64,000 nucleotides of DNA from Emiliania huxleyi CCMP1516. Lineage: Eukaryota. The notes beneath the pieces are model-generated. The model had not been told where the DNA came from. It made no database searches and saw only the letters and a program-made list of their open reading frames with translations. Positions 1-48,336 of this stretch are shown piece after piece (the stretch's first letter is position 1; every line of letters begins with the position of its first letter). The stretch covers positions 1,085,081 to 1,149,080 of the forward strand of contig NW_005201287.1 of NCBI RefSeq assembly GCF_000372725.1, in the 5' to 3' direction. Position numbers and translations under genes: made by a program.

Positions 1-490
1 CCTCGACGACGTGTGCTGCCTGCTCCGCCTCGGAAAGGCGTCGGCGACCCCCCCGGCCGTGTCTCGGCCTGCGTCCCGGCTAACCCTCCTCCGCCTTGGC
101 CAGGTGGCCACGATCCGAGCCCTCCTCGCGGCGCGCAAGCTGCTGCAGGGCGGCGCCGAGTACGGCTACCTCCTCAACCGAGCGTGGCTCGACGACACCG
201 TGATCTGGCTGCAGCGGGTCCCGGCGCGGCGGCTCGTGCGGCTGGCAGCTGCGCTCGAGGCGGCAGCACCAAGCAAGCCGACGGTGGGCTGGCCACTGGA
301 GCAGTATGAGGCGCTGGCACTCGAGGACGAGGAGGGCGGGGAGGGTGAGGCGAGTAGCTCAGAGAGCGGCGACAGCGACAGCGGTGAGAGTGGAGAGGGC
401 GGCGAGCGCGAAGCGGCTCCGGGTGGCGCAAATCATGCCGACACAGGGAGATCGGAACGGGGTATGGAAGTGGAAGGAACCTTGGTATGA
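1..490 (+). CDS. SHQ1: 3' end of H/ACA RNP assembly factor SHQ1 (GC-AG intron 38-103)
   Basis: Spliced LRLGK|VATIRALL..YLLNRAWLDDTVIWLQ..LAAALE..K..VGWPLEQYEALA plus an acidic tail matches the SHQ1 C-terminal pattern; CTAAC branch point in the intron. Confidence 0.75.
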   Translation, partial: LDDVCCLLRLGKASATPPAVSRPASRLTLLRLGQVATIRALLAARKLLQGGAEYGYLLNRAWLDDTVIWLQRVPARRLVRLAAALEAAAPSKPTVGWPLEQYEALALEDEEGGEGEASSSESGDSDSGESGEGGEREAAPGGANHADTGRSERGMEVEGTLV

Positions 491-3300: not shown

Positions 3301-4294
3301 CTAAAAGTACGTACACTGAAAAAGCGTGTCTCGAGTTTGTGGCAGCCCCACAGCCGGCGCGCGCCGCCAGGAAGCACCGCTCGCGTGTCGGCGGCACTCC
3401 CTGGCACCCAGTGAGTGCCGCGAACCGACCAGACCGAACAGGCTCGATGCCGCGCTCGCTGTGGGGCTGCCACAAAGTCGCCGCCGAGCGTGCCACCGAC
3501 GGCGTCCCGGCGGAGGTGATGGAGTGTGAGACCTGAGGCTGCGGAGGTGACGCCTGAGGTACCGGCCCGTGTACGGCGACTCAGCCGGCGACCGCCACGG
3601 GCTCAGACGAGACTTGTCGACGCGTTCCGGCTCAGCTTCACCGTGGTCATCGGGCGTCTGTCGACGTCAGGACCACCCATACAGCTCGCGGGTTTGAGGT
3701 CGCAAGAGCCAAGATGGTGGCGTTTGGACATCCCAACCATCACACAAGACAGCCTGTAGGTGATGGCGGGACGGCGCAGTGTTTGTGGCACTCGGCAGTA
3801 GGCACCCGCGGCACAGCCCCGCGGTCGGCTCTCGCGGGCTGCGGAACCGGCCCCAGAAGGGGACGGTCCGGGCGAGTGTGGCAGCTCCTGCGCTAGTATG
3901 GGCACCCTCTATCACAACACTACTGATCCTGGCCATTAGAGCTGCCAGGGATAGCGTCAGGAGCTGGTAGTAGTCAAAACCCCTCATATTTGAGACATCG
4001 TGGCCCATATACTCGCACAACGAGCCATCTCTGCGGCGCGCGGTGCGAGAGAGAGGCCGTGAACAAAGACGTGCGAGCAGGCGCTTCTCGAGACGAGCGC
4101 TTGCGAGCGCGAGCAGCAGCTGTGAAACACACATGACACAAAAACAAACATAATGAGAACGCGGTCAACTCGGAACTCGCAAGACGCAACTCCCCGCGGG
4201 GCCGCGCCCGGCCGGGGCCCGCGCCCCGGGCCCGGCCCGCGCGAGCGAGTCTACACACATCACACGGTGATAATTCGTAAAAAAAAGCATCGTA

Positions 4295-5431: not shown

Positions 5432-5592
5432 GTGTTTACTTTAAGGCCCTTGCCCTGCGAACGCGCACCCCCGGGGCTAGGGCTCTCTTGCCCGCAACCC
5501 GATCCCGATCATCCGGCCCGCTGGGTGCGCTCCTTAGCTCCCCGGCCCTGGATGTGAGGCTAATGACTGCACTCCAAGACCAAGTGCTCCAA
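5432..5592 (+). mobile_element. 5'-truncated copy of a retroposon family ending in (CTCCAAGTG)n
   Basis: Near-identical to 10329-10483 and the reverse complement of 45040-45193. Confidence 0.8.
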
Positions 5593-7579: not shown

Positions 7580-9893
7580 TCAGTCTAGCTGCTCCATCCC
7601 GCTGCCCGCCGCCGCCGGCTCCTCCCCTGCGCCGTTCCGCTCGTCCTGATCCTCGACCGGCGCGGGCGCGCCCTTCGCGCCGTCGGCGAGAGCGTCTGCC
7701 GCCGGCGCCTCGCTCCCTCCAAAGGCGGCGGTCGCGTACGGCGAAGCGTCCGGCTTGGCGGGAGGCAAGCCGCGTTCGCACCGCTCCTCCTCGGTGAGCC
7801 GCGCCTCCGCCAGCTTCGCCGCCGCCTCGGCCGCCGCCGCCGCAGCAGCTGCCGCCTCCTCGGCCTCCGCAGCCTCCCGCGCCTCCTCGGCCGCCTCGCG
7901 CTCCGCACGCTGCTTGACGAGGCCGCGCACGAGCGACGCCATGCTGCCCACGCCCTCGTCGCTGTACGCCTCGACGTCGTCGGGCGGCGGGAGGCCGAGC
8001 TCGCGGGAGAGGAGGAGAGCGCACCCCTCGAGCAACGTCACCAGCGAGTGCGACAGCCCGCCCTCCTCCTCGGCGGCGGCGCCAGCGTCCGCCTGCCGCG
8101 CGGCCGCCGCCTCGAAGTGCGGGAGACCGCCGCCTACGGGACGTGTCCAGGACACGTATGGACGTGTCATGCACGGCCTCGAGCTGCGCGAAGCCGCCGC
8201 CGTCGACGAGCTCGGCGGCGGAGGCCGCGTCGCCGATCAGGCCTGCGAGCGCGCGCGCGCCGTCCGCCTGCACCTCCTCCGAGCCGGCCTGCCGCACGCA
8301 CAGCCGCAGAACCTCGGCGGCGGGCGCCTGCAGCCGCAGCCGCGCCAGCAACGGCGCGTCTCCCCGCGCGAGCTGCGCCACCAAACCGACCGTCGGGCCG
8401 ACGAGCGCCGCCTCCTCGGCCGCCGACGCGCCGCCGTCGGCGTCTGCGTCGGCGCGAGCTCCGACCGTCTCGATGGCCACGAGGAGCTTGCGCAGCACCT
8501 CCGCCTCGAGGACGGACGCGCGGACCACGTCGTTGAGCGAGGCGAGCATCTGCAGCGCGCGCACGCCGACACCCGCCACCGCGCCGGTGGGGTGGGCCCG
8601 GACCGCGTCGCAGAGCGTCTCGACGCCGCCGTCGAGCACGAACGGCTTTGGAGGCACCGCGGGCAGCAGCATCCGAACCGCGAGGACGAGCTGCGCCGCC
8701 GTCGGAGCGTCGCGCATGTGCGAGCGCAGCGCGGGCAGGAGGAGGCCCATCGCGCCGCCGTCGGCAGCGATCTTCTTGACGAAGCCCCGCCCGCGCATGA
8801 GGGAGCAAAGCAGCCTCCACGCGTCTGCCGTCACCTCGCGCAGCTGGCCGTGCATCCGGACCGCGCGCAGCAGAAGCGGCACCGCGCGCGCGTTGAGGGC
8901 CGCAACCACCGCCCCGTCCGCAGCCTCCTTGGCGCTCACCGCGACGGCACTGCCCGCGTCTGCGCCTCCGTCGCCCCCGCCGCCGCCCGCCGCTCGCACC
9001 GCCGTCTGCGCCGCCGCCGCCTCGGCGGCGGCGGGCGAGGCGGGGTCGATGTTTGCCTCGATTGCGGCGATGCACTCGCGGAGGGCGGCCAGGTCTCGGG
9101 GCCGCTGCCCCATCCGCTGGACGACGACGTCCAGCCGCGCCGGCGGCGGCGGCGCGCCCTCCGCTGCGGCGTGGGGCACGCCGCCGGCGACGGGCGGCGG
9201 CGCGGGCTTGGAGGCGATGGCGGGGAGGGGCGCGAGGATGGCTGGCCAGAGCGAGGGCCTGACTTTTGGCAGGTCGATCACAATCTCGTGCGTGTCGGCC
9301 GAGAGGTGCCACATGCACTCGGACGCCTCCACCTCCGCGTGCAGCTCGCCCGCCACGAGCGGCTGCGGCCAGAAGCGAGCGCGCAGCACGAGCCGCGTCG
9401 CCGGCCCGTGGCTCGGCGCCAGCTGGAGCAGCACCTCGCTCTTGGTGGTCCCGTCAGGCACCGCGACGGCGATGGTCAGGTCCGTCTCCGACTGCGTCCA
9501 GCGGTACCCTCCCCCGTCGCCCGCCGTCGGGTCCGCACGCGGCTCCTCCTTCTTCCGCGGCCGCGGCGGCGGCGTGGGCTCGGGCGGCGGCCACTCGCCA
9601 AAACGGTCGGGCACGGCGGCGGCTCGCGCGGCGGAGGCGTGAGCCGCGAGTGCTGTGAGCATCTCCTTGCGCGCGCGTAGCGGCAGGCCGCCGAGCGCCG
9701 GTGCGATCTCCGCCAGCGCCTGCTTGAAGCCCAGCGGGTCGCGGGCGTCCTTTGGCACGTCAGCAAAGTCGAGGAGCCGGTTGAGCGTGGGCTCCGGCCA
9801 GCCGCGGGGCAGCTGCGAGCCGCTAGCCGCGCACAGGTCGCCGCGCAGCGCCTCGCCCGACCGGAGCGACTTGGCACGGAGCGTGCTGGCCAT
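7580..9893 (-). CDS. CS (p23/NudC-like) domain + armadillo-like repeat protein; intron 8134-8200
   Basis: YRWTQSETDLTIAVAVP..GELHAEVEASECMWHL..IDLPK..LWP; ARM-like helices; splicing joins the 780-aa and 196-aa ORFs in frame. Confidence 0.75.
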
Positions 9894-10177: not shown

Positions 10178-10483
10178 GTGGGGGACGAGGCCGGGCAGTG
10201 TACACGTTAGACAGTCGTGTGTGTACGTGACGGGTGGTGTCGTAGTGTCCGTGTCCACTAGCTCCGAGTAGAGGGGGCGTTCTGCAGTTAAGGGGAAACC
10301 CGGTACACGGAGCCCTCTCGGAGAACTGTGTTTACTTTAAGGCCCTTGCCCTGCGAACGCGCACCCCCGGGGCTAGGGCTCTCTAGCCCGTAACCCGACA
10401 CCGATCATCCGGCCCGCTGGGTGCGCTTCTTAGCTCCCTGGCCCTGGATGTGAGGTTGATAACTGCACTCCAAGTGCTCCAAT
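10178..10483 (+). mobile_element. ~300-bp copy of the (CTCCAAGTG)n-tailed retroposon family
   Basis: Matches the reverse complement of 45040-45346 over its full length. Confidence 0.85.
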
Positions 10484-10647
10484 GTCTGTGTGTTGGCGGC
10501 GTACCGTCCTCCATCCCTCCCTTGGGTTGTCTGTTTTCTTTCTTTCTTTGAAACCACGCCCTCAAGCTGGCTGTCCTGCCGACACCAAGCCTTCAAGCCG
10601 GTCCTCCGGCTTCCTCGCACGCGCCAGCCGCCACAACAAGCTCTGAC

Positions 10648-10799
10648 TGTTAGACCTAAAGGTCGGCGGTTCGACCAACTAGGCCACCTTCAACTAGGCC
10701 ACCTTTTGCGCAATTGCGCAAAAGGTGGCCTAGTTGGTTGCGCAAAAGGTGGCCTAGTTGGTCGAACCGCCGTCCGCCGACCGACCTTTAGGTCTAACA
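10648..10799. repeat. Palindromic MITE-like element
   Basis: TGTTAGACCTAAAGGTCGG...CCGACCTTTAGGTCTAACA centred on GCGCAATTGCGC. Confidence 0.8.
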
Positions 10800-13258: not shown

Positions 13259-14159
13259 GCGCATGTTTGGTCGTTTGCCGATGGCGCGCTCGCACTCAGG
13301 ACTCAGTACACGCATGTGCCAAAATGTGATGTCCCGTTCCACTTCCAGACGACGGCCGCATGCCGCGGATGTGGTCGTGTGCCCTGACTACCGAGCATGC
13401 CGCATCGTGACAGTCAATGCACTAAATACTACGGGGGAAGGACCGTGAGTTGACGGAAATCGGGGGACGCGCGACCCACCTCGCCACAGACGGTCCCGCG
13501 CCTCGCCGCTAAGACGGCTACACGACCGCGGCTCGTGTGCGTGTAGCCGTCTTTGTCCGGAGTGAATACTCCAACGCGCTCGTCGGTGGCGGCGTCCCCC
13601 CATTTCGCCGCGCTCGGCGAACCTCGACAGCGCTTTCGGTGGCATGTGCAGCTCTTTGACTTTGTGCGCCTGAAGCCCGTGGAGAGCAGCTCCTCTCTCT
13701 GCTGCTCACACGCTCTGCACAGTTGACACAGCCTACTGTGCGGCTGCCACAGCTGTGACAGCGATGGGCTCGCCCTCACTGGCCCTCAGTCACTTGTGCT
13801 GCGGCTTGTGTGAGCGACACTCTGCTCGGCGCGACTGCCGGCCGCACTGTGAGAGATCATGGGTGTGAGAGAGGTAAAACCACGCTACCAGCGCTTGATC
13901 ACATCGGCCCCGAGGTCAGATCCTTCTACTCTGTTGATGACAAGACTTGTCTACTCGCTGGAGCCGAGCAGGAGGGCTTGGCGCACAACCCCTGTTCAAC
14001 TCAGGGAACAGGGTCCTTCCCCTTTACATACCCATTTGCATTTCTTACTCCAACCTGCTCCTTTGGCTCCACCGCCTACTGAGTCTGAGAGAGACACGCA
14101 CTCCGCCCGAAACCGCGAAAAAGTACACATTGACGCTCTCGAAAGAACCCGTCACGGGC

Positions 14160-19402: not shown

Positions 19403-20155
19403 GGCACGTTGTGCGAGTATATGGGACACGATGTCTCAAATATGAGGGGTTTTGACTCCTACAAGCTCCTGACGCTATTCCTGGCAGCTCTAATGACCAG
19501 GATCAGTAGTGCTATGATAGAGGGTGCCCATACTAGCGCAGGAGCTGCCACACTCGCCCGGACCGTCCCCTTCTGGGGCCGCTTCCGCAGCCCGCGAGAG
19601 CCGATAGCGGGGCCGTGCCGCGGGTGCCTACTGCCGAGTGCCACAAACACTGCGCCGTCCCGCCATCACCTACAGGCTGTCTTGTGTGATGGTTGGGATG
19701 TCCAAACGCCACCATCTTGGCTCTTGCGACCTCACACCCGCGAGCTGTATGGGTGGTCCTGACGTCGACAGACGCCCGATGACCTTGGTGAAGCTGAGCC
19801 GTAACGCGTCGACAAGTCTCGTCTGAGCCCGTGGCGGTCGCCGGCTGAGTCACCGTGCACGGGCCGGTACCTCAGGCGTCACCTCCGTAGCCTCAGGTCT
19901 CACACTCCATCACCTCCGACGGGACGCCTTCGATGGCACGCTCGGCGGCGAGTTTGTTGCAGCCCCACAGCGAGCACGGCGTCGAGCCTACTCACTCCAG
20001 TTGGTTCGGCACACTCGGTGGGGTCCACCGAGTGTGCCGAACGCGCGAGCGGTGCGTCCTGGCAGCCCGCGCTGGCTGCGGAGCTGCAACAAACTCGAGA
20101 CACGCTTTTTGGGACATTTTCGACGCTTTTGTCCCATATACTCGCACAACATGCC
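19403..20155. mobile_element. 753-bp MITE, same family as 569-4026, inverted
   Basis: 25-bp TIR GGCA(C/T)GTTGTGCGAGTATATGGGAC; TSD ATCC at 19399-19402 and 20156-20159. Confidence 0.9.
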
Positions 20156-21586: not shown

Positions 21587-21628
<42 letters not shown>

Positions 21629-21629
21629 A

Positions 21630-21718
<89 letters not shown>

Positions 21719-26919: not shown

Positions 26920-28137
26920 CTGAGCCCTGGCCTCGACACCTCGACACCAAACCTCGACACCGACTCGACACCTCGACAACCCATGCCAACTCGACAAACT
27001 CGACACCCCTCGACACCATCTAGGCTGAAACCATGCTCGTCCGTGTCAAGGTGCCAAACTCGACACCTCGACACCCCTCGACACCCCTCGACACCGCTCG
27101 ACACCGCTCGACACCGCTCGACACCGCTCGACACCGCTCGACACCTCTGATGATCCTAACACAGCAGAGACGTAGACCCATTGGAGTCACAGAGTTAGAA
27201 ATCAGGGTTGCAGCAGCAATCAAACTTGGCTGGCAGTACTTTCATCCCTGAGTTGCAGCCTCTCAAGTTCTAGCTCAAGTTGCAGCTCAGTTGCACCCCT
27301 GTTGATGCAGCAAACATGGCAGTACTCAGGTAGCCCTAAGGTGCTGCACAGCACCTTGTACAGTGGCAATGAATCCTCACACCAGTGAGCTTGTGCCATG
27401 AGTGCAGACCTGTGGTCCATTGCGCTTTGTGCACTGGCGACGCTGCAACGGCGACGCTGCAGCGGCGGCGACGCTGCTGCGATGGGGTACTGTAGCCCTT
27501 AGCTGCTGGACAGCACCTTGTGCAGTGGCAATGTCCACTGACTCATGGCACCAGCCTTGTGCCATGAGCGCTGTGGTCAGTTGCGCTTTGTGCGCCGGTG
27601 ACGCTGCAGCAGCGACGCTGCTGCAGCAGCGACGCTGCTGCGGTGCTGCGCCTGCACAGCACCTTGGTGCACAGTGGCAATGACTCCCGGCACTTGATGT
27701 CCTCAAATGTCCACAGAGAGTATACTGGTTGTGCTCAGGTTGTGCTACATCAACAGGGTGCAACTGAGGCTGCAACTAAGCTCTAAGGGATGAAACAGCT
27801 TTGCAACTGCTGCCCAACTTTTGTTGTATGTTGATGGGCTGCAACTGCATCCACCTGCCACCTTGGACACCTCGATACCTCAGACGCCTCTTGACAACAC
27901 TCGACACCCGCTCGACACCCTCGACACCCTCGACACCCTCGACACCCTCGACACCCTCGACACCCCTCGACACCCCTCGACACTCCTCGACACGGACAAG
28001 CATGGTTTCAGCCTCGACAGGCCTCGACAGGCCTCGACAGGCCTCGACAGGCCTCGACAGGCCTCGACACCTCTATCCCTCGACAGCAGCTCGACACCCT
28101 CGACACCGGGCCTCGACACCTCGACACCAGGGCTCAG
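26920..28137. mobile_element. Non-autonomous TIR element with 8-bp TSD and CTCGACACC subterminal arrays
   Basis: TIR CTGAGCCCTGG/CCAGGGCTCAG; TSD GCGCAGAC at 26912-26919 and 28138-28145. Confidence 0.9.
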
Positions 28138-28974: not shown

Positions 28975-30873
28975 ATGCTGGCAGGCTTGGCGATGCCGCC
29001 GCTCATTGGCCTCCACACCCCGGAGCTCGAAGATGCGCACTCGTTTTGCCGCTCGTCGAGCTGGCTCATCCCCGGGTACGTCCTGCTCGGCAGCTACCCC
29101 GGGTCCAGCCCCGGGCGTCCCACCTCCAACGCGTGCACGCGGGCGAGGGAGACGGGCGTCAGCACCTTTGTCTGCCTGCAAGACGAGCTGCCGCCGCAGA
29201 CCGAGGCGTGGCCAGAGGAGGGCGTGCCAAACCTCTCCGAGCGCGCAAAGTGGGCGGAGGGCAACTTCCACAGCTACCGGGACGCCGCCGGACCGAACGC
29301 GTCCTTTCTGCACTTTGGGCTGCCCGACCTCAAGCCGGCGAGCTCGCTGGACGCCCTCGACGCGATCGTGAGTGTGCTGCACCGCCGGATCGAGAACGGG
29401 GAGAAGCTCTACATCCACTGCTGGGGCGGGCGCGGCCGGACCGGCCTGGTGGCGGCGAAACCGGCCCGGTGCTCATGTGAACGGTGCCTGGCCTCACAGC
29501 TATGATTGTGAGCAGGTCGCGGCCTGCCTGCTCGGTGCTCTCTACGGTGAGCTCGATGCCGACCAGGCGCGGAGCGGTTTACAGATCGGAGAGAGAGTAG
29601 TTCATGCAGCCCATTCTTGATCACGGCACCTCCCGGACAGGCGCTGAGGCGGGTGCAGTGCTACTATGACCTGCGGCAGCCGCTCGGGCGGGACGCGGCC
29701 GGAGCGCGCAAGTGCAGCCCAGAGACAGAGGCGCAGGCCAACCAGGTGCGCGATTGGTTCTCCTTCAAGCGGATCGTCGCCCGCGCGGACGTCGCTCCTC
29801 AAGAGATAGGCTGCACTTGGAGCATCTACAGCAGGGGAGTCCGGGTGCTGCGAGGCATCTCCACGCCTGGCACGACGGCGGAGCGCATTGAGACCGTCGG
29901 ACCGAGCGCAAATCATCCGCTGACACGCGCCGAGGCGCTGACGCGAGTCGGTGACGCGGAGCTGCTCGGCAAGGGTCAGTTTGGGAGGGTCTTCCGAGGC
30001 AGCTGCGACGGCACCACCCTCTGTGACGTCGGCTGCTCGGAGGGCGACGTGGCGATCAAGGTGATGCCTGACGGCGCCCCGTCGTACGAGCAGTCGAGGC
30101 TCGCGCTCGAGGCAAAGGTGATGCGTGCGATGAGCGGCGTGCGGGGCTTTCCAGTGCTGCACTACGACGGGCGTCAGACCGTGTTTGGGCGGCCGAGCGA
30201 CGTGCTGGTAATGGACATGCTCGGCCCTTCGGTGCGCTCCCTACTACACCGCCACCCGCTCGGAGCCTCGCGCGCCGTGCGCAAGGTGGGGCACGACGTG
30301 GTGCGTTGCCTGCGCGAGCTGCACGCGGCGGGCTTCATCCACAACGACCTCAAGCCGCTCAACATCCTGTTTGGCGCAGCCGGCACGGGCCGGGAGGAGG
30401 AGGCGCACGTGCTCGACTTTGGGATGGTGACGTCGACGGGCTGCTTGCAAGAGGCGGTGGAGGGCTGCGAGCTGTCCGCGGGCGGCGCGACGCCGCTGTA
30501 CGCCAACTTGGCGCAGCTTGAGGGGAGGCCGACGGCGCCGGTGGACGACATCGAGAGCCTGTGGTACTGCCTCGCCTTCCTCGAGGGCGGCGAGCTGCCG
30601 TGGATGTGGGAGCCGCTCGAGCGCGTGCGCAACATCAAGCGGCGGCTGCTGGTCTCCGAGTGCGCCGTCGCCTCGGACACGTGCGACTCGCAGCTCACGA
30701 GCGCGGAGGCCTGCTCGACCGCGCACTGCCTGCGGACGTACGAGGACTGGGACTGCTCCGACACGCTGCACGAGCTGTGGGGCGCCGTGCTCGAGGGACA
30801 GGCGAGCGGCCTGGTGGACTACGACGCGTGCCTCGAGGCGCTGGCGGAGCCTGAGGCGGAGAGTGGGGACTAG
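28975..30873 (+). CDS. Cys-based protein phosphatase fused to CK1-like kinase; introns 29449-29515, 29567-29640
   Basis: YIHCWGGRGRTG; GKGQFG, VAIK, MDMLGPS, HNDLKPLN, DFG, DDIESLWY, GELPW; both splices in frame. Confidence 0.8.
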
Positions 30874-31014
30874 CCCCGAGACGGGTGTGTGACATCGAGT
30901 GGTGACATATGGTCGGCAGGCAGCCATACATGTGTCCCCTCGGGTTTCTTGTCGCCAGTGCTCGCGCGTGTGCCTCGACTAGAACTCGCGGTGGGCGTGG
31001 GTTCACAACGGTAT

Positions 31015-32784
31015 ATGCCGCCGAAACGGGCCGCAACGTCACCGGCGGCGTCCGGCAAGCGCTCCAAGGCCGCCGTGCCCGCCGCCGAGCCCGCCGAGCC
31101 TGCAGAGGAGGCGCTCGATCCAGAGACGGTGCGAGCGTTCCTTCCAGTCGCGCTCTCTTCTGTGCTGACGGAGCAGATCGAGGAGACTGGCCCGTTCAGC
31201 AGTGAGGGCGCGATGCTCGCGATGCTAGAGGCGCGCGTGACGCTCGCCGTGGCGCTCTTCAAGCTCTCGTCCGAGTGCTCGCAGCGCGTGCTCTCCCACT
31301 CGTCGCGAGACTTTGGAGAGGGGCAGGCCTCTGCGGTGGAGCGAGCCTACGACCACGCGCTGCCCGCGCTGCGCGCGTGGGTCCTGCGACTCGGCCGTGC
31401 ACTCGCCGCGCGCTCGCCGCTGCCTCTCGCGAGCACCGGGCTGCCGCCGCGCTTCCACCGGCTGTGCGAGGTGTATGACCTCTCCGCGGACGAGCGGACG
31501 CTGCTTGGTGGGCTTCTGCTGCTGCGCACCTCGCACGCGTTTGCGCACGTCAAGCTGGGCTCGCACGTGTCGTACGGCGGCGGCGGCGGGCTCTACGCCT
31601 CCTCCTCGAAGCCCGCCGTCACCCTCTGCTCCATCCTCGGCTGCCCGCTCTCGTCGCTCGCCACCCTCCAGCGGCCAGAGCGGAGGCACGTCAAGCAGGG
31701 CGTGGTGCTGCAGGGGCAGCAGCTGCTCGCCGAGGTGCCGGCTCTGCAGCCCGAGGCGGTCCTCCTCCTGCTGGGCCTCCCCCTCTCCGAGTCGCAGCTC
31801 TTCAACATCGAGAAGGCCGACGCCATGAAGGTGCTCGTCGAAGAGCCCGGCTTTGAGCGGCCCGCCGCGGCCGCCGCAGCAGCAGCCGCGGCCGCCGCGG
31901 CCGCCGCGGCCACCGCGGCCGCCGCCGCGCTGCCCAAGGCGGTGGAGGGCGGCCCCGCCGCCGCCGCCCTGCCTGGCCACGGCTCGCTCTACTCGCTGCT
32001 CCAGATTGAGGCGGCTGCCGAGCGGTCCGCCGCCAACGGCGTCGCCGAGGGCGACGCGGAGGAGGGCGAGGCCAAGAGCGCCGAGGCCAAGGGCGCCGAG
32101 GGCGAGGAGGGGGGGGAGGCGCCGCCTTCCGGCTGGCGCAAGGGGCGCAAGGCTGCGGCGGGAGGCAAGTCGACGGCCGGCGCGGCGGCCGAGGCGACCA
32201 ACGGCGCCGCGGCGGGCGGCGGTGAGGCGGAGGGCGAGGCGGTCGAGGACGGAGCTGCGGGCGGGGCCAAGCTCCGGAGCGGGCCGTATGAAAACGACCT
32301 CGAGTACCTGCAGGACATGTTCGCCCTGGCAAAGCTGCGCTCCGACGTGGCGCGCGTGCGGCGGCACATGGAGGAGCGCGGACAGGCGGTCGCGTCGAGC
32401 AGTGGCGGCGGCGGCGGCGGCGCCGACGGCGGCGACGCAGACTCGGACGACGCCGACCTGCCTCCGCTCGACGAGCCGTACTGGGCGATGGACGAGTACA
32501 GCTACGAGATGGAGGCGATGTCCCGGGGCCGCTTCGGCCGCAACATGCGGCACGAGGCCTCGAAGCAGGCGCGGCACGACTCGAAGCGCGCGCGCAAGCT
32601 GCAGGCGCGAGCCGAAAAGCTGCAGGAGCGCATCTCTCGCAGGCTGGCACAGATGTCGGAGGCGGACGTGCGGCTGCCTCGGCTGGAGCGGCTCGCGGCG
32701 GCGCTCGGCTTCTGCGAGTTTGAGAAGAACGTCGTGGTCGCGATGATCGGGCAGGCCATCGCGCCGCGATCGATTGGCATCATG

Positions 32785-32819
<35 letters not shown>

Positions 32820-34987
32820 CCCCTCGGCGCGGCGCCTGCAGCGGCCTCTTTGCGCCACTCGACCCGCCTGTCTTGCGATTAGGCTCGCCGTCCAAGACGA
32901 TGCAGGTGGAGGTGCTGCTGCGCGCCTTCTCCGCCTCGCTGCAGCAGCAGATCCGCAACCGGCGCCACTTTTATAAGTCGTCGGTCCTCGTGCGCGAAGG
33001 GATCCTCGTGCTACACGGCGACGAGCTTGGCGGCGACCTCTCGCAGACGATGGCGGAGATCGACCGGCGGATGCTCGACTTTGTGGTCGGCCTTGACACC
33101 GAGTTCTCCGAGCTGATGGACGGCTCGCACCTCTACACGCCGACGGTCGACATCAACGAGGTCGTGCTGTCGGAGGCGAAGAAGACGCTGGTCGTGGACA
33201 CTGTCCGCCACTTCGACACCTTCACCTCGGCGGCCAAGGAGCTCGAGCTGCACAAGAAGCTCTCCTACGGGCACGGGATGGTGCTCCTCTTCTACGGCCC
33301 CTCCGGCACCGGCAAGACCATGCTCGCGAACGCGATCGCCGCCATGGTCGGCAAGAAGGTGCTGATGATCAACTTTCCGGCGCTCGGAGCCAACTCGGCG
33401 GGCGCAATCCTAAAGCTCGTCTTCCGCGAGGCCAAGATCCACGACGCGGTCCTCTTCTTCGACGAGTGCGAGTCGATCTTCATGGACCGCACGAAGGGCA
33501 ACCTGCAGGTCAACACCGTCCTCACCGAGCTCGAGCGGCACGAGGGACTCTGCGTCCTCGCCACCAACCGGCCGATGGACCTGGACGAGGCGATGCACCG
33601 GCGCATCACTCTCGCCATCGAGTTCACCAAGCCCGACCTGCTGCTGCGCGAGAAGATCTGGCGGAGCATGGCGCCGCCAAAGCTGCCGCTCGGCGACGAC
33701 ATCGACTTCATGGCGCTCGCGCGCAAGTTCGAGCTGCCGGGCGGCTTCATCAAGAACGCCTGGCTGACGGCGCTGTCGCTCGCCGTCGCGCGGGAGGGCG
33801 CCGCGTGCAAGGTCACGCAGGCGGATCTGCACGCCGGCGCGTCGCACCAGCTGCGCGGGCGGCTCGCGATGTCCAAGATGGACCGCGGCATCGTCCCGAC
33901 GCGCGGGCTCGAGGAGGCGAGGGACCCGCGCCCGCCCTCCCAGCTTCCTTCTCCCTCCCAGCATCCTTCTCCCTCCTCCCCCCCCCCCCCCCCCCACGGC
34001 CCCTCCCCGCCACTCCTCCGTCGCCCCTCCCGCCTCGCACCGCACCGCCCAGCCGAGCGAGCAGTCGGCGCGGGTAGGTGGAGCTGCCCGCCTCGGTCAA
34101 GGACAAGCTCCGCCAGATGGTCTCCTACTCCAAGGCGCAGGCGGTGCTGTTTGGCCAGTGGGGCTTCGACAAGCAGCACGGCCGCGCGCAGGGCATCGCC
34201 GCGCTCTTCCACGGCCCCCCCGGCACGGGCAAGACGATGGCGGCCGAGGTCTGCCCGGCTCGACTGTGGCGCCCTCCCAGCTCACCCATCTAAGGGCCGT
34301 CGCCCTCGCCCCCAGGCTGTCGGGTTTGACATCGGCCGCCCGCTCATGGTGGTCAACTGCGCTCAGCTGATGGACAAGTACGTGGGCGAGTCGGCCAAGA
34401 ACATCGAGAAGGTCTTCGACGAGGCCAAGGCGCAGGAGGCGGTGCTCGTGTTCGACGAGTGCGAGGGCCTGTTTGCCGAGCGGAGCTCCGAGGGAGGCTC
34501 GACCGCGCGGCACGACTCGATGAACATCGGCGTGCTGCTGCACCACATGGAGACCTTCTCGGGCGTCGTCGTCGCCATCACGAACCGGTTCCAGCAGATC
34601 GACTCCGCCTTCCACCGGCGCTTCAAGTTCATCCTCGAGTTCCCCACGCCCAACGCCGCGGCGCGCGGCCGGCTCTGGCGCCTCCTCGTGCCGAAGGAGG
34701 CGCCGCTGCACGCCGACGTCGACTTTGCGAGGTGGCGCCGTGCGCCGCAGCCGGGGGGGGGGGGGGGAGCTGGGAGTCACGCCCGGAAGCACCGCCGCAG
34801 GTTGGGCGAGTCGTACGAGCTGTCGGGCGGCTCGATCAAGTCGGCCGTCTTCCGCGCAGCGGTCGAGGCGTCGCTGATGCCCGAGCCGTCGGAGCGCATC
34901 ATCACCATGGCGGCGCTGCAGGCGGCTGCGCGCGAGGAGCTCGACAAGGACGGCGACTCGCGCCGACCCGCAGTCATGTACACGTGA
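31015..34987 (+). CDS. Tandem AAA+ ATPase (introns near 32820-32882, 33917-34077, 34249-34315, 34732-34800)
   Basis: GPSGTGKT/LFFDECE/ATNR and GPPGTGKT/LVFDECE/ITNR. Confidence 0.9.
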
Positions 34988-35640: not shown

Positions 35641-38273
35641 TCAACCATCTACAGGAAACGGGAGCGGTGAAGGCGTGCCTGGGCGGCGGTGGGAGTCCCA
35701 CTCGCTGGGCCGCGCCCGCGGTGCGTTCGGCGGGGCGGTCTCTCTTTGCGGCGGCGGTCTCCGCGCCAGCTGATCTGCCAGATAGCCAAACAGGTCGGCG
35801 CACGCGCCAGGCATGGTGGGGGGCCGGCGCTTCGCGTGCGGCGGCCCGAAGCTGGCGAGCAGCTTAGCGACCTGCCCGACGCGGGTGTCGGCAGGCAGCA
35901 CCTACAGCCGGAGGGCGAAGGAGCTGAGCGCAGTATTCCCCGCACCCTCGTCACACTCCCCCCTCGCCCTGCTCTGCACCTCCTTCAGCGCGGTGAGGGC
36001 GCGCGCCAAGCTCGCGTCGCCGAACGTCAGGTAGCGCAGGGACGGCCGGCGAGCGCGCGACGCGGCAAGCCACTGCACGACCGCCTTGAGCTGGACGCAG
36101 CCGCCAAAGGCGCCGCACCCCCAGTTGCCCGTGCAGAGGGGGCGGAGGGGCGCGTCGGGCGTCTCGCCGTCGGGAGGCGCAAACCCGACGAACGCCTGCG
36201 CGCAACACGCACTTTGGTGAGGGAGGCCCCTCTCTCCCTCGCCGCCTGCACGGCCCGCCGGCGCCTTGTTGAGCTCCCTCTCGATCGCGCCGCGGGAATA
36301 CTGCCCCAGCCGCGTCTGCGCGTCGCGCCCAAAGGCAATCGCGTCGATGGCGAGCAGCTCCGTCTCCGCGGGAGGCTCCGCGGGCGAGCCGGCGGCCGCC
36401 ACGTGCGGTCCCGCAAAGGCGAAGGTGGCGTGGCCGTAGCCCGAGTAGTTGGAGAAGCGCTCGAAGCCGCGCATCAGCAGCGCCTAGGGAGTGTCCAGGA
36501 AGCGTCTTGGGAATGTGCAGGAGGCGTCTGGCAAGGCGCATCAGCAGCGCCTCGTGAGAGGCCATCGGCTCGGCGATCGCGCGGCTCACAATCAGCTCGG
36601 GGCAGATCAAGAAGCGGATCTCCTCCTGCACCGCGCCGTTGCGAAACACTCCGCCGCCGATCGTCGCGTTCGCAAAGTCGAGCTGCGTGAAGTGCGGCCC
36701 CGAGTCCTCGATCGTCCCTCCCTCCACCGCCTCCACCGGGCAGAGCGGCGCGTCGCTCATGCCCCACGCCTCCTCCCCGTGCCCGCCCAACGACAGCTCG
36801 GACGTGTCGCCGACGAGCCGGCGGAAGGTGATGGGGCGGAGGCGCCACCCGCCGGCGGCGTCGCGGCGGCGGCGCGCCACAACGCCAAAGTATTCGAGCA
36901 AGCAGCGCCACTTCGCCTCGTGCTGCGACGGCAGGGACGGCGGCGCCCCGTGCCTGCCCGGGTTAGGCATCTCGCCGATCAGCCAGCAGAAGGAAAAGTA
37001 GGGGAGGACGGACGAGCCGCGGCCGCCTGCAAACAGGTTGGGAAGACGTTCAGGGACGGCTCTGGTGGGCGAGGAGCAACGGGCCCGTCGCCGCCTCGGC
37101 CGCGCGGGGTGTCGTTCCGGTTGGGCATCGTGCAGAAGAAGGCGTTGGCGAGCAGGCAGGCGCACTGCTCGGCGCTCAGCTCGACGCTGCCTGGCCCGCC
37201 GGAGCGGAGCAGCCGCAGCGGCGCGCGGAAGTGGCGCGGCGTCTCGAGCACGAGCTCGCAGAGCGTGGGCACGATCTCGCCGAGCAGCTCGGCGCGACCC
37301 GCGTCGTCGAGCACCGACCCGAGCAGCGCCTGCAGCCGGCCCAGCCCCCACTCGCCGCCCACCGCCCTCCGCAGCGTGGCCATCGTCTCGAGCAGCGCGT
37401 CGACGTCCGCTGGCGGCCGAGAGAGCGCGCGAACCACCACCGGCCAGAGCGGAGCGCCTATTCGCGGACGTCTGTGAGCAGAAGCGGCGCTAGTGTTCAC
37501 CGAGGCGCCTCTGGAGCGGTGGTGCCGTCTGCGCAGCGTGCGCGCGGCGAGCAAGGGAGGCGGACATGCGACCGGTCCCACCGGTCGTCGTAGTCGGCGG
37601 GGAGGCTCGAGGGGGTTGGCACGGTCGACGCAAAGTCCGCCTCGAACTCCACCTGCGCCGCCGCGTCGTCGTCAAGCCGCGGCTCCTCCTCCTCCGTCTC
37701 CTCGCCGGACGCGTCTGCGAGAGACCCCTCTGCCGTGCCTGCGCCCGGGACAACCGCCAAGGCGCACTGCTGCGTCACCCACGCGGCGTCCACGACCGGT
37801 ACGCCCTCCTCGCGCATCCTTGTAGTCATCGGGCCCTCCTCGTCCGGCTGCGTGGAGGGTCCGAGCAGCAGGTGTGTGGGCGGGTCTGCACCTGGGTGTC
37901 CAGCCGCAGAAGTCTCCAGCCGGCCGCCGGCAGACAATATCTCGTTGCGCAGATCGGCGAGCTCGTCCTCGGCGCCCTTCCAGCCGGCAAACGCAATCAC
38001 GCTGCCGCGCAGCGGGGCCTCGGGCGTCACGAGGAGCGCCGCCGGAGCAGCCACGGACGGTACATTGATGTTGGCCTGCGGCGCCGCGGCCGTTGCTGGG
38101 GCCTGCACGGGATCGAGTGAGCGTTCGGACGAACCGCCGGGCGCCGCGGCCTTCGCGGGGAGCAGCCAGCTGTCGAGCGTCTTGGGCATGTCAGTGTTGG
38201 TGAACCTTCTTTCGCGCCAGTCCGCGCCCTTGTCGTGCCAGTGTGCTGTGAGAGAGGCTTGTTTTTCTTGCAT
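35641..38273 (-). CDS. PARG: Poly(ADP-ribose) glycohydrolase with N-terminal BRCT domain (about 5 introns)
   Basis: LLANAFFCT, DFANATIGGGV..GAVQEEIRFLICPEL, TGNWGCGAFGG; BRCT-like LRGSVIAFAG..GG..THLL..PVVDAAWV. Confidence 0.9.
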
Positions 38274-44811: not shown

Positions 44812-45039
44812 CGGTCTCTTTTTGGGTGGGAGGACGCGATAGCCTGGTGTGATGATGTTGATTGACTCGCGGCCCATCGAGCGCTAGCTAGACGTGCGAG
44901 TTAGGCGCCGCTGATGAAAAACAAAAAACGGGCAAGTACGACCAACCTCGGTCAATCATGCTCCTGAGCCGAAACTCAGTCAAACAAGTTTTTGTCTCAG
45001 AGCCTCGCCTCCCCTCTCCCCGCGGCCACAGAAACAACT

Positions 45040-45346
45040 TGGAGCACTTGGAGTGCAGTCGGCAACCGCACACCCAGGGCCGGGGAGCTGAGAAGCGCAC
45101 CCAGCGGGCCGGATGATTGGCATCGGGTTGCGGGCAAGAGAGCCCTAGCCCAGGGGGTGCGCGTTCGCAGGGCAAGGGCCTTAAAGTAAACACAGTTCTC
45201 CGAGAGGGCTCCGTGAGTCCGTGTACCGGGTTTCCCCTTAACTGCAGAACGCCCCCTCTACTCGGAGCTAGTGGACACGGACACTACGACACCACCCGTC
45301 ACGTACACACGACTGTCTAACGTGTACACTGCCCGGCCTCCTCCCC
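45040..45346 (-). mobile_element. Copy of the (CTCCAAGTG)n-tailed retroposon
   Basis: Reverse complement of 10178-10483; candidate TSD ACAACT at 45034-45039 and 45347-45352. Confidence 0.85.
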
Positions 45347-46807: not shown

Positions 46808-48336
46808 ATGCTGCGCAGTCTCGCGCGGCCCGCCGCCGCCAGCTCCTCCACCTTTGCGGCGCGGCGGCCGTGGGCGCTTGCGGCGCGCCGGCTGTTCATC
46901 CAGACTGAATCGACGCCGAACCCTGAGGCGCTCAAGTTCCTGCCGGGCAAGGATGTCTTGGAGAGCGGCTCGCGCGACTTCCGCTCGCTCAAGGACGCGC
47001 AGGCGTCGCCGCTCGCGCGGCGGCTCTTCGCGACCGAGGGCGTCACGTCGGTCTTCCTCGCGGCCGACTTTGTGACGGTGAGCAAGTCGGACGAGATGGA
47101 CTGGGTCGCCCTCAAGCCGCAAATCTTTGGGGCGATGATGGCGCGCGCCGCCGCCGCAGACACACCCGCGCGCGCCTCCTCTGCACGCGCTCCGCTCGCA
47201 GCGGCGACGCAGCACACTGCCTCTGCTCAGGACTTTTACGCGTCCGGAGAGCCCGTGCTGTCGGAGGAGTCGGGGAGCGAGGAGCTGGACTCGCTCGTCA
47301 TCACGGACGACGACTCCGAGGCGCGCGCCTCGCTGTGCGGGAGGCGGGGGGCGGGAGCGGTCCCTGTCGAGTGCCCCTTGAGGGAGCCTCTCTCCCGCGG
47401 TGCAGGTGGTGCAGATGATCAAGGAGCCTGCTCGAGATGCGCGCCCGGCGATGAGGTGAGAAGTGAATTGAGTCGAGGTGTGATTTGGTATCAAGGAGCT
47501 GCTCGAGATGCGGATCCGGCCGTCGGTGCAAGAGGACGGCGGCGACATCGTCTACCGCGGCTTCGACGACGAGAGCGGCGTCGTCACGCTGCAGATGCAG
47601 GCGCACCGCCGGGGCGGGAGAGGGGACGGGCGGAGAGGCGGGAGAGGCAGCGGCGGGGCCGTCTCTTGCGACTGCTGCAGCCGCGCCGCCCCGTTGTCCG
47701 CAGGGCTCTTGCGCCGGCTGCCCGTCCTCCTCGGTCACGCTCAAGGCTGGCATCGAGAACATGCTGCGCCACTACATCCCGGAGGTCAAGGAGGCGCGCG
47801 GGAGGAGGGGCGGGGAGGAGGAGGAGGAGGAGGCCTGGCCGCGAGGGTCGAGGGTGGGATGGGGGGCGGTGGAGAGGGGCGGCGGAGGGGCGATGGCGGG
47901 GGCGGGCGATGAGAGCACACCGCCCGCACCCGCGCAGGTCCGCGACATTGCAGCCGACGACGAGGAGATGGGATTCGAGGCCCGCCGGGTAGCAGCGAGT
48001 AGGGAGAGCGTGCGGGCAGGCGGGGAGAGGTGGCGGAGAGGGTCGGGTGTGCATGTCCAGCCTCGTCCGCACCACGCACGCGCCCCAACACCATCCCGCC
48101 ACCACCCGACAGACGCCGTGGTGACTGCTCTGGTGACTGCTCTGCCTGCCCGAGGAGCCCCCGCCCACCCCGCCCCGGGGGTGTCGCTGTGCGAGACGTC
48201 GACCCGCGCCGTCGTCTGCGCTCCCCTGTCGCCGCGGCGCAGCCATTCCAGGCGGGGAGGCGAGCTCGTGCCTCGCCTGCCGCAGGTGAACATGATGGAC
48301 TTGGTCAAGACGAAGCCGCCGAAGCCCAGAGACTGA
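46808..48336 (+). CDS. NFU1: Mitochondrial Fe-S scaffold NFU1 (about 6 introns)
   Basis: [75 protein letters not shown]. Confidence 0.95.

Follow-up and report, generated by a model that had tools for sequence, protein, structure and literature searches.

How does a short spliceosomal intron come to hold a long copy of the exon that follows it, and to share its 3′ end with an intron of an unrelated gene? Where most new spliceosomal introns come from is still an open question, to which discrete introners are only part of the answer. Two introns in a stretch of 64,000 nucleotides from the alga Emiliania huxleyi CCMP1516 (contig NW_005201287.1, positions 1,085,081 to 1,149,080; hereafter the window) raise the question directly. 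An earlier note, written from the sequence alone, had described both features and read them as the mark of a propagating intron sequence, a candidate introner family.

A genuine 67-nt GC-AG intron in a CS-domain gene

The intron at 8134-8200 (minus strand), first proposed in that note, is confirmed. Comparison of RNA contigs with a DNA contig identifies it as a 67-nt, phase-1, GC-AG spliceosomal intron: RNA contigs from two studies (X13 and X15) cover 7313/7368-8126 and resume at 8194, a skip of 67 nt that can slide by 8 bases over a range that includes the GC..AG register 8134-8200, while the contig from DNA run X7 crosses the site with the intron retained. Read contigs were compared for 4 of the 22 runs, and the skip is present in two of the three RNA-type runs (X13 and X15); in RNA run X4, the assembly is broken into two contigs at the intron. 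An alternative splice register retaining the upstream copy of the duplication described below is absent from both X13 and X15. The same locus is represented in a metagenome (L039), where the intron is identical.

The host gene has a single long first coding exon (8201-9893, minus strand) and a second coding exon (7580-8133, minus strand) that is supported by the RNA contigs and by protein alignment across the junction. It encodes a 748-aa protein with a CS domain (Pfam PF04969, E 9e-9) and likely also an ARM-like helical part, the latter a weak lead from a protein atlas (score 0.76) in which all leads for this protein scored below 0.9. The spliced protein aligns through the exon junction to P0004, P0005, and P0007; BLASTP with exon 2 alone gave no match to P0004 or P0005, and only the junction-spanning alignment succeeded. 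An Rfam search of the window returned 0 matches.

The exon start is duplicated inside the intron

The intron lies between the two copies of a 26-nt direct repeat, 8109-8134 and 8176-8201, that agree at 21 of 26 positions (81%) with a spacing of 67, exactly as the earlier note had claimed. The upstream copy (8176-8201, minus strand) consists of the last exon base and the first 25 intron bases and supplies the GC donor; the downstream copy (8109-8134, minus strand) consists of the last intron base and the start of exon 2 and is the one retained in the mRNA. The translations originally given, GGGFAQLEA for the intron copy and GGGLPHFEA for the exon, are also correct, and the homologue P0005 reads GGLP at the downstream copy. 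One of the five differences between the copies is synonymous. The window has three repeats of at least 21/26 at GC/GT..AG pairs 55-80 nt apart; none of 30 triplet shuffles has any.

The second intron, in a PARG gene (36484-36550, minus strand), is also a 67-nt GC-AG intron and carries a perfect 17-bp duplication (AG + 15) together with a filler of the family described below. This junction, like three others in PARG, matches P0040, a protein with 92% identity; it is on this match and on the sequence, not on read contigs, that the PARG introns rest. In metagenome locus L084, the allele of 36484-36550 has 2 substitutions. Another PARG intron whose junction matches P0040 (37027-37094, minus strand; 68 nt) has a decayed 21/30 duplication and an unrelated filler.

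The shared 3′ end belongs to a dispersed filler family

The part of intron 8134-8200 that is not exon copy is a 42-nt filler (8134-8175, minus strand) that belongs to a family of 11-12-mer minisatellites and supplies the AG acceptor. The 3′ motif that it has in common with the PARG intron occurs at 2 sites in the window (8134-8152 and 36484-36500) against 0.00 expected from 100 shuffles, a count made with a search pattern built from those very two sites. Scanning metagenome contigs with the pattern gave 82 loci, of which 10 are E. huxleyi-like and represent eight distinct places; these were tied to the window by BLAST, except L080, which was assigned by style only, and the other 72 were judged to be chance matches from GC content and from context by eye rather than from taxonomy. 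The eight places are the 8134-8200 locus, PARG, three further intron ends (in two GalE paralogues, which share one identical intron, and in an RluA-like gene), and three sites inside longer 11-12-mer arrays (L007, L031, and L080). The labels GalE, RluA-like, and PP2C come from translated motifs, with no family search behind them.

The introns of the host, GalE, and RluA-like genes have 22-24 nt in common at the 3′ end, and the last 24 nt of 8134-8200 are identical to the end of the GalE intron, although the search pattern itself dictated 17 of these letters. Counting all loci, a similar 3′ part of 22-40 nt is found in the non-homologous host, PARG, GalE, RluA-like, and PP2C genes, and the PARG filler is 81% identical to the L007 array over 53 nt. 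Similarity does not run end to end: the 5′ parts are locus-specific exon copies, and the filler begins at no fixed point on its 5′ side. Since the same 3′ end is common to the GalE, RluA-like, PARG, and host introns and to the 11-12-mer arrays, a dispersed filler family exists. The motif, anchored at the acceptor, occurring also in arrays, and lacking a fixed 5′ end, is thus one repeat unit of a minisatellite that is dispersed in the genome. The array patterns gave 0 matches in viral contigs and 0 in prokaryote genome contigs; the motif itself had 3 matches in viral contigs, all in AT-rich, non-algal context.

Thus the shared 3′ sequence reported by the earlier note is real and extends to further genes. 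Its description of both intron interiors as ~10-bp tandem units holds for PARG, where TRF finds a period of 22 in 2.3 copies, but not for 8134-8200, which has two 9-nt copies 21 nt apart, no clean array, and no TRF entry. At 26931-28133, outside modeled genes, the window also contains extended arrays of a CTCGACACC-like 10-mer that are similar to the filler unit. The 2013 genome paper by Read and colleagues is said to describe 10-11-bp tandem repeats in E. huxleyi introns.

Could the family be a DNA transposon of the MITE or Helitron type? The common 3′ end would be compatible with this, as would the small hairpin that precedes the terminal TAG in three of five motif introns, and introner families of E. 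huxleyi have been tabulated in print. In 8134-8200, a perfect inverted repeat of 8 bp (8141-8157; spacer 1 nt) lies inside the filler, and the filler folds with z -2.64 (4 of 200 shuffles were equally good); the PARG intron has no comparable fold (z +0.68). However, inverted repeats are internal only, and terminal inverted repeats (TIRs) are missing from nine introns, with 4-6 matching positions of 15 when counted from where the intron starts and 4-9 when counted from where the filler starts. The duplications are long and unequal, at 26 bp here, 17 in PARG, ~30 in the RluA-like gene, and 16 (decayed) in GalE. On both points the earlier note, which had set these introns apart from MITE-type introners, was right. 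Helitrons are described as making no duplication (PMC12130899, in the part available), whereas 26 bp are duplicated here. A genuine MITE in the window (13430-14024) is also unlike these introns in having 14-bp TIRs and a short duplication, and we regard an origin of this type as very unlikely. That element, ~595 bp long and present in high copy number, has its TIRs at 13434-13447 and 14009-14022 and a duplication that is probably 3 bp; since it is missing from the X7 (DNA) and X15 (RNA) contigs, it is a polymorphic MITE-like insertion.

Long duplications recur around unrelated fillers

Is the duplication part of the filler family? We curated 40 introns from codon-model predictions and hand reading, 5 chosen by the motif and 35 not, and 10 of the 40 have outside support from RNA contigs or proteins. 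Doubtful models were excluded, namely every intron of L007 and L080, two EamA introns, five other window predictions, and predictions that join genes; the intron common to both GalE paralogues was counted once. For each intron, a score was taken for the match between its start and the exon that follows it, and the matches of that start to every other exon served as a null that keeps the splice consensus. Four of the five motif-bearing introns exceed the 95th percentile of the null, so that the flanking duplications expected of them from the earlier note are present. For the 35 others, the mean anchored score is 5.76 versus 2.63 when permuted, a value reached in 0 of 20,000 permutations; 11 lie above the 95th percentile and 8 above the 99th, one of the latter being a low-complexity artefact. 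These figures are to be read with the caution that several duplications were spotted by eye before the intron list was fixed and that 15 of the 35 introns lie on motif-selected contigs. Restricted to the window, the count above the 99th percentile is 4 of 20 introns, the artefact included, and among non-motif introns with outside support it is 2 of 8. An annotation-free scan for duplications gave 21 hits versus 12 in the control, mostly tandem arrays, with 0-1 in 20 shuffles; its threshold of 16/20 missed both seed introns (8134-8200 and PARG).

The copies are ~14-30 bp long, with no fixed length, and strong copies are concentrated in short introns (9 of 18 introns of ≤75 nt versus 3 of 21 longer ones; Fisher p 0.035). 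Mismatches between copies fall on codon positions 1, 2, and 3 in the proportion 20/13/12 (45 sites, the 4 mis-phased sites of SHQ1 being dropped); as there is no third-position excess, this is as expected for neutral decay. The idea that the copies differ mainly at synonymous sites was rejected, since only 11 of 49 differences are synonymous. Donors are GC in 24, GT in 15, and GA in 1 of the 40 introns, and 97% of the exons in the curated set start with G.

Individual cases illustrate the range. A GA-AG intron of NFU1 (47424-47495, plus strand; 72 nt) has a 22/26 duplication, a further 6 nt on the 3′ side, and an unrelated filler; joining the five NFU1 introns as read, this one included, reproduces the transcript-derived protein P0011. 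Another database protein, P0009, departs from the conserved frame at this junction, where P0011 is correct. In exon 1, NFU1 has 100% identity to a UniRef entry labeled Emiliania huxleyi. In a gene for a dual-specificity phosphatase, a predicted GT-AG intron (29449-29515, plus strand; 67 nt), with boundaries read by hand, has a 19/26 duplication and an unrelated filler. In the RluA-like gene (L011, 2239-1822, minus strand), three consecutive introns each have a junction duplication of 15-30 bp, around three unrelated fillers. Throughout the non-motif set, the fillers of duplication-bearing introns are unrelated to one another and to the motif family, and SHQ1 alone scored, weakly, against the latter.

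The long junction duplication therefore recurs independently of the filler; it is not part of the shared filler family and is the more important of the two features. The reading of these introns as an introner family stands insofar as a small dispersed filler family exists over the last 22-40 nt, and not insofar as the duplication was held to belong to it. Similarly, a propagating sequence accounts for the 3′ end shared by unrelated genes and not for the equally strong duplications around unrelated fillers.

The elements follow one another as copy, filler, AG, and second copy, or in mirror image. Comparing intron ends with upstream exons gives a weak signal overall (p 0.026), with two clear mirror cases in which the 3′ end of the intron copies the end of the upstream exon: a predicted 66-nt intron of SHQ1, known from a gene model (38-103, plus strand; 15/19), and a GalE intron (23/29). 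The end of the PARG intron also matches its upstream exon end, at 10 of 14 positions, which would fit the simple case that a 67-bp stretch of exon with AG|GC inside it was duplicated in tandem in the genome. However, 5′ copies can be perfect or nearly so (PARG 15/15, an RluA-like intron 23/24) while the remainder of the intron is no copy of the upstream exon, and as a general account tandem duplication is scarcely credible. For 8134-8200, it was rejected: the 3′-side score against the upstream exon is 1, and the filler is not an exon copy and occurs in other genes.

Relatives lack the introns at these sites

P0006 (~41% identity), a genomic-type ORF on a 345-kb contig, reads through the 8134-8200 site. 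P0045 reads through all four tested PARG sites, yet has in-frame introns elsewhere, and P0046, on a 28.7-kb contig, reads through the same four. The WK/AEL intron of GalE, which bears a duplication, is missing from a paralogue. Within E. huxleyi no empty allele was seen, the 8134-8200 intron being present in X7 and in L039. Protein comparison thus makes us favor a gain of the 8134-8200 and PARG introns in this lineage, with the proviso that the intron-less relatives are distant (40-48% identity) and may have lost them.

If the introns were older, could their ends have been rewritten later? Slippage, or aborted copying from spliced cDNA, might alter the ends of existing introns, with the motif spreading separately by ectopic gene conversion or being kept as a favored acceptor signal. 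Such events would explain nested modules, consisting of an exon-start copy and filler, at the 3′ end of longer introns in the PP2C gene (L031, 2280-2461, with a 70-nt module at 2392-2461) and in GalE (L064, 1689-1448, minus strand). These re-duplications at existing junctions indicate that duplications can postdate the intron, and repeated exon-plus-array units in L007 are also suggestive. An identical 72-nt intron in two diverged GalE paralogues (L064, 1857-1786; L081, 1506-1577) is a further point for rewriting, although the assembly may have merged them: the tract around this intron is 91% identical over 186 bp versus 75-83% elsewhere, and transfer by gene conversion or assembly merging is likely. 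The 3′ motif is moreover better conserved than the junction copies. While the last 24 nt are identical, 17 of them by virtue of the search pattern, the copies have decayed by 20% in 8134-8200 and by 31% in GalE, which fits poorly with a joint origin of filler and duplication. Against later rewriting, the introns are missing at these sites from genomic ORFs of relatives and from a paralogue, mismatches have no third-position bias pointing to a diverged coding template, and the origin of the introns themselves is left unexplained. We consider it improbable.

Origin of the introns

What process would yield copies of variable length around diverse fillers? The simplest is that a break with staggered ends is filled in and receives an insert, and we hold it about evenly balanced whether these introns were gained in this way, a duplication of 14-30 bp giving the donor and copied filler giving the AG. 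For 8134-8200, the gain would likely have occurred in the Emiliania lineage. A staggered DNA break would likely have been filled in, so that ~26 bp of exon became duplicated, and a filler of ~40 bp, likely copied from a dispersed 11-12-mer repeat or from the 3′ end of another intron, would have been joined between the copies. The first copy, starting G|GC, would then act as the donor and the filler ending TAG as the acceptor, and the intronic copy would have decayed neutrally afterward. We infer the break, the source of the filler, and the timing. A copy starting G|GC can work as a donor because the alga splices GC, GT, and GA donors, and with the donor in the first copy and TAG in the filler, splicing restores the coding sequence exactly, as the RNA contigs confirm. 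More generally, since nearly all exons start with G and all three donors are usable, the first copy would readily become a donor and leave the mRNA unchanged; permissive GC and GA donors may let almost any duplication turn into a splice site. The same process with other fillers likely produced a sizeable minority of the short introns of this genome.

It is also possible, though unlikely, that the inserts were captured from RNA. Non-LTR insertions typically make variable duplications of 14-30 bp. Such a scheme, RNA-borne and introner-like, would use the machinery of a non-LTR retrotransposon and target-primed reverse transcription to copy short RNAs at nicks in genes. The templates would be either a SINE-like RNA with a repeat tail or excised introns, copied from their 3′ ends, and each insert would be truncated on its 5′ side, end in AG, and be flanked by long target-site duplications (TSDs) of variable length. 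A long duplication of variable length with a 3′-anchored, 5′-truncated insert is what is found here, although the pattern is not exclusive to target-primed reverse transcription. Sequence sharing is tied to the 3′ AG and weakens in the 5′ direction, other fillers likewise resemble intron 3′ ends, and the motif is on the sense strand in five of five motif introns, although the search was written so. Non-LTR introners make up ~5% of classified introner families in the available part of one survey (PMC12130899). On the other hand, no reverse transcriptase gene is present among 34 ORFs scanned in the window, no element was seen by eye next to the arrays in L007, L031, and L080, and no source element was found. 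Poly(A) is absent, the mirror cases would require a donor at the truncated 5′ end, and the L080 array would be antisense to a predicted gene.

Returning to staggered breaks, a doubtful extension is that introns seed introns: the 3′ ends of excised-intron RNAs, with their 10-12-bp repeats, would be copied into staggered cuts genome-wide, with no dedicated element. If true, this would explain the origin of at least a fifth of short introns as well as the placement of intronic repeats.

Comparison with known systems

Repair of staggered double-strand breaks has been proposed for neointrons of Daphnia pulex, which carry the same kind of scar (PMC4202315; reviewed in PMC3443670 and PMC3296678; all as partly available). 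The likeness lies in the direct repeat between exon and intron at the junction, which is found here too. In the available part of PMC4202315, however, the Daphnia repeats are 4-12 bp and the introns AT-rich, whereas the introns studied here have repeats of ~14-30 bp, mostly GC donors, a clustering of lengths at 64-72 nt, and one family of fillers that recurs across genes. Introners that take the donor from a TSD and carry the acceptor are described for Symbiodinium, Polarella, and Aureococcus (bioRxiv 10.1101/2022.06.06.494994, 10.1101/2020.10.14.339549), with TSDs of 3-8 bp in the passages available (same preprints; PMC11282704). As in those introners, the duplicated target gives the donor, the insert gives the acceptor, and the mRNA is unaltered. 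They differ in their fixed 3-8 bp TSDs, frequent TIRs, and end-to-end similarity, as opposed to long variable duplications, no TIRs, and similarity limited to the last 22-40 nt.

The main-text passages searched in the introner papers make no mention of E. huxleyi. In supplements, as far as available, it is listed with 5 families and 653 elements (PMC9860276) and, for CCMP1516, with 3 families, fam11, fam24, and fam4 (LTR) (PMC12130899). The latter source gives fam11 6 copies with splice coordinates ~66 apart and GT/GC donors, and fam24 5 copies of ~70 nt with "10bp terminal direct repeats" that co-opt the 5′ and carry the 3′ splice site. Compared by description only, both are similar in length to the introns studied here and fam24 follows the same splice-site logic, and the motif filler family may already be among these published families; the table rows available for fam11 and fam24 do not mention 15-30 bp duplications across unrelated introns. 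Donors in E. huxleyi introns are given as 56-65% GC and 4% GA (PMC4028052), with which the GC majority and rare GA of our curated set are in line, and neither junction duplications nor the origin of introns come up in the available passages of that paper. Those of PMC2784329, PMC10290126, PMC13334186, PMC11347168, and PMC5177918 likewise contain nothing on junction duplications. In the open-access literature, we found no description of long junction duplications in E. huxleyi introns; the 2013 genome paper lay outside this search and may bear on the point.

Since the duplication and not the filler is the common feature, clustering introns by full-length similarity would miss most cases. If about a fifth of short introns carry readable duplications at graded stages of decay, the age and origin of introns could be read singly, and because the alga is sequenced, cultured, and represented by many strains, existing genomes could then separate break repair from capture of RNA.

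Other elements in the window

A dispersed repeat of ~320 bp and very high depth occurs at 10181-10492, 45027-45346, and 5432-5578, and also in L081. Another dispersed element forms a 709-bp inverted pair (3319-4026 and 19403-20110; 92.5% identity), and a long inverted-repeat structure lies at 10648-10799. At 21587-21715, an array of 21.5 TGAGGG units was read by the codon model as coding (an LT repeat) and is probably non-coding or mis-predicted. Finally, a large gene at 30874-34987 encodes a winged-helix variant domain and two AAA domains and has four predicted introns.
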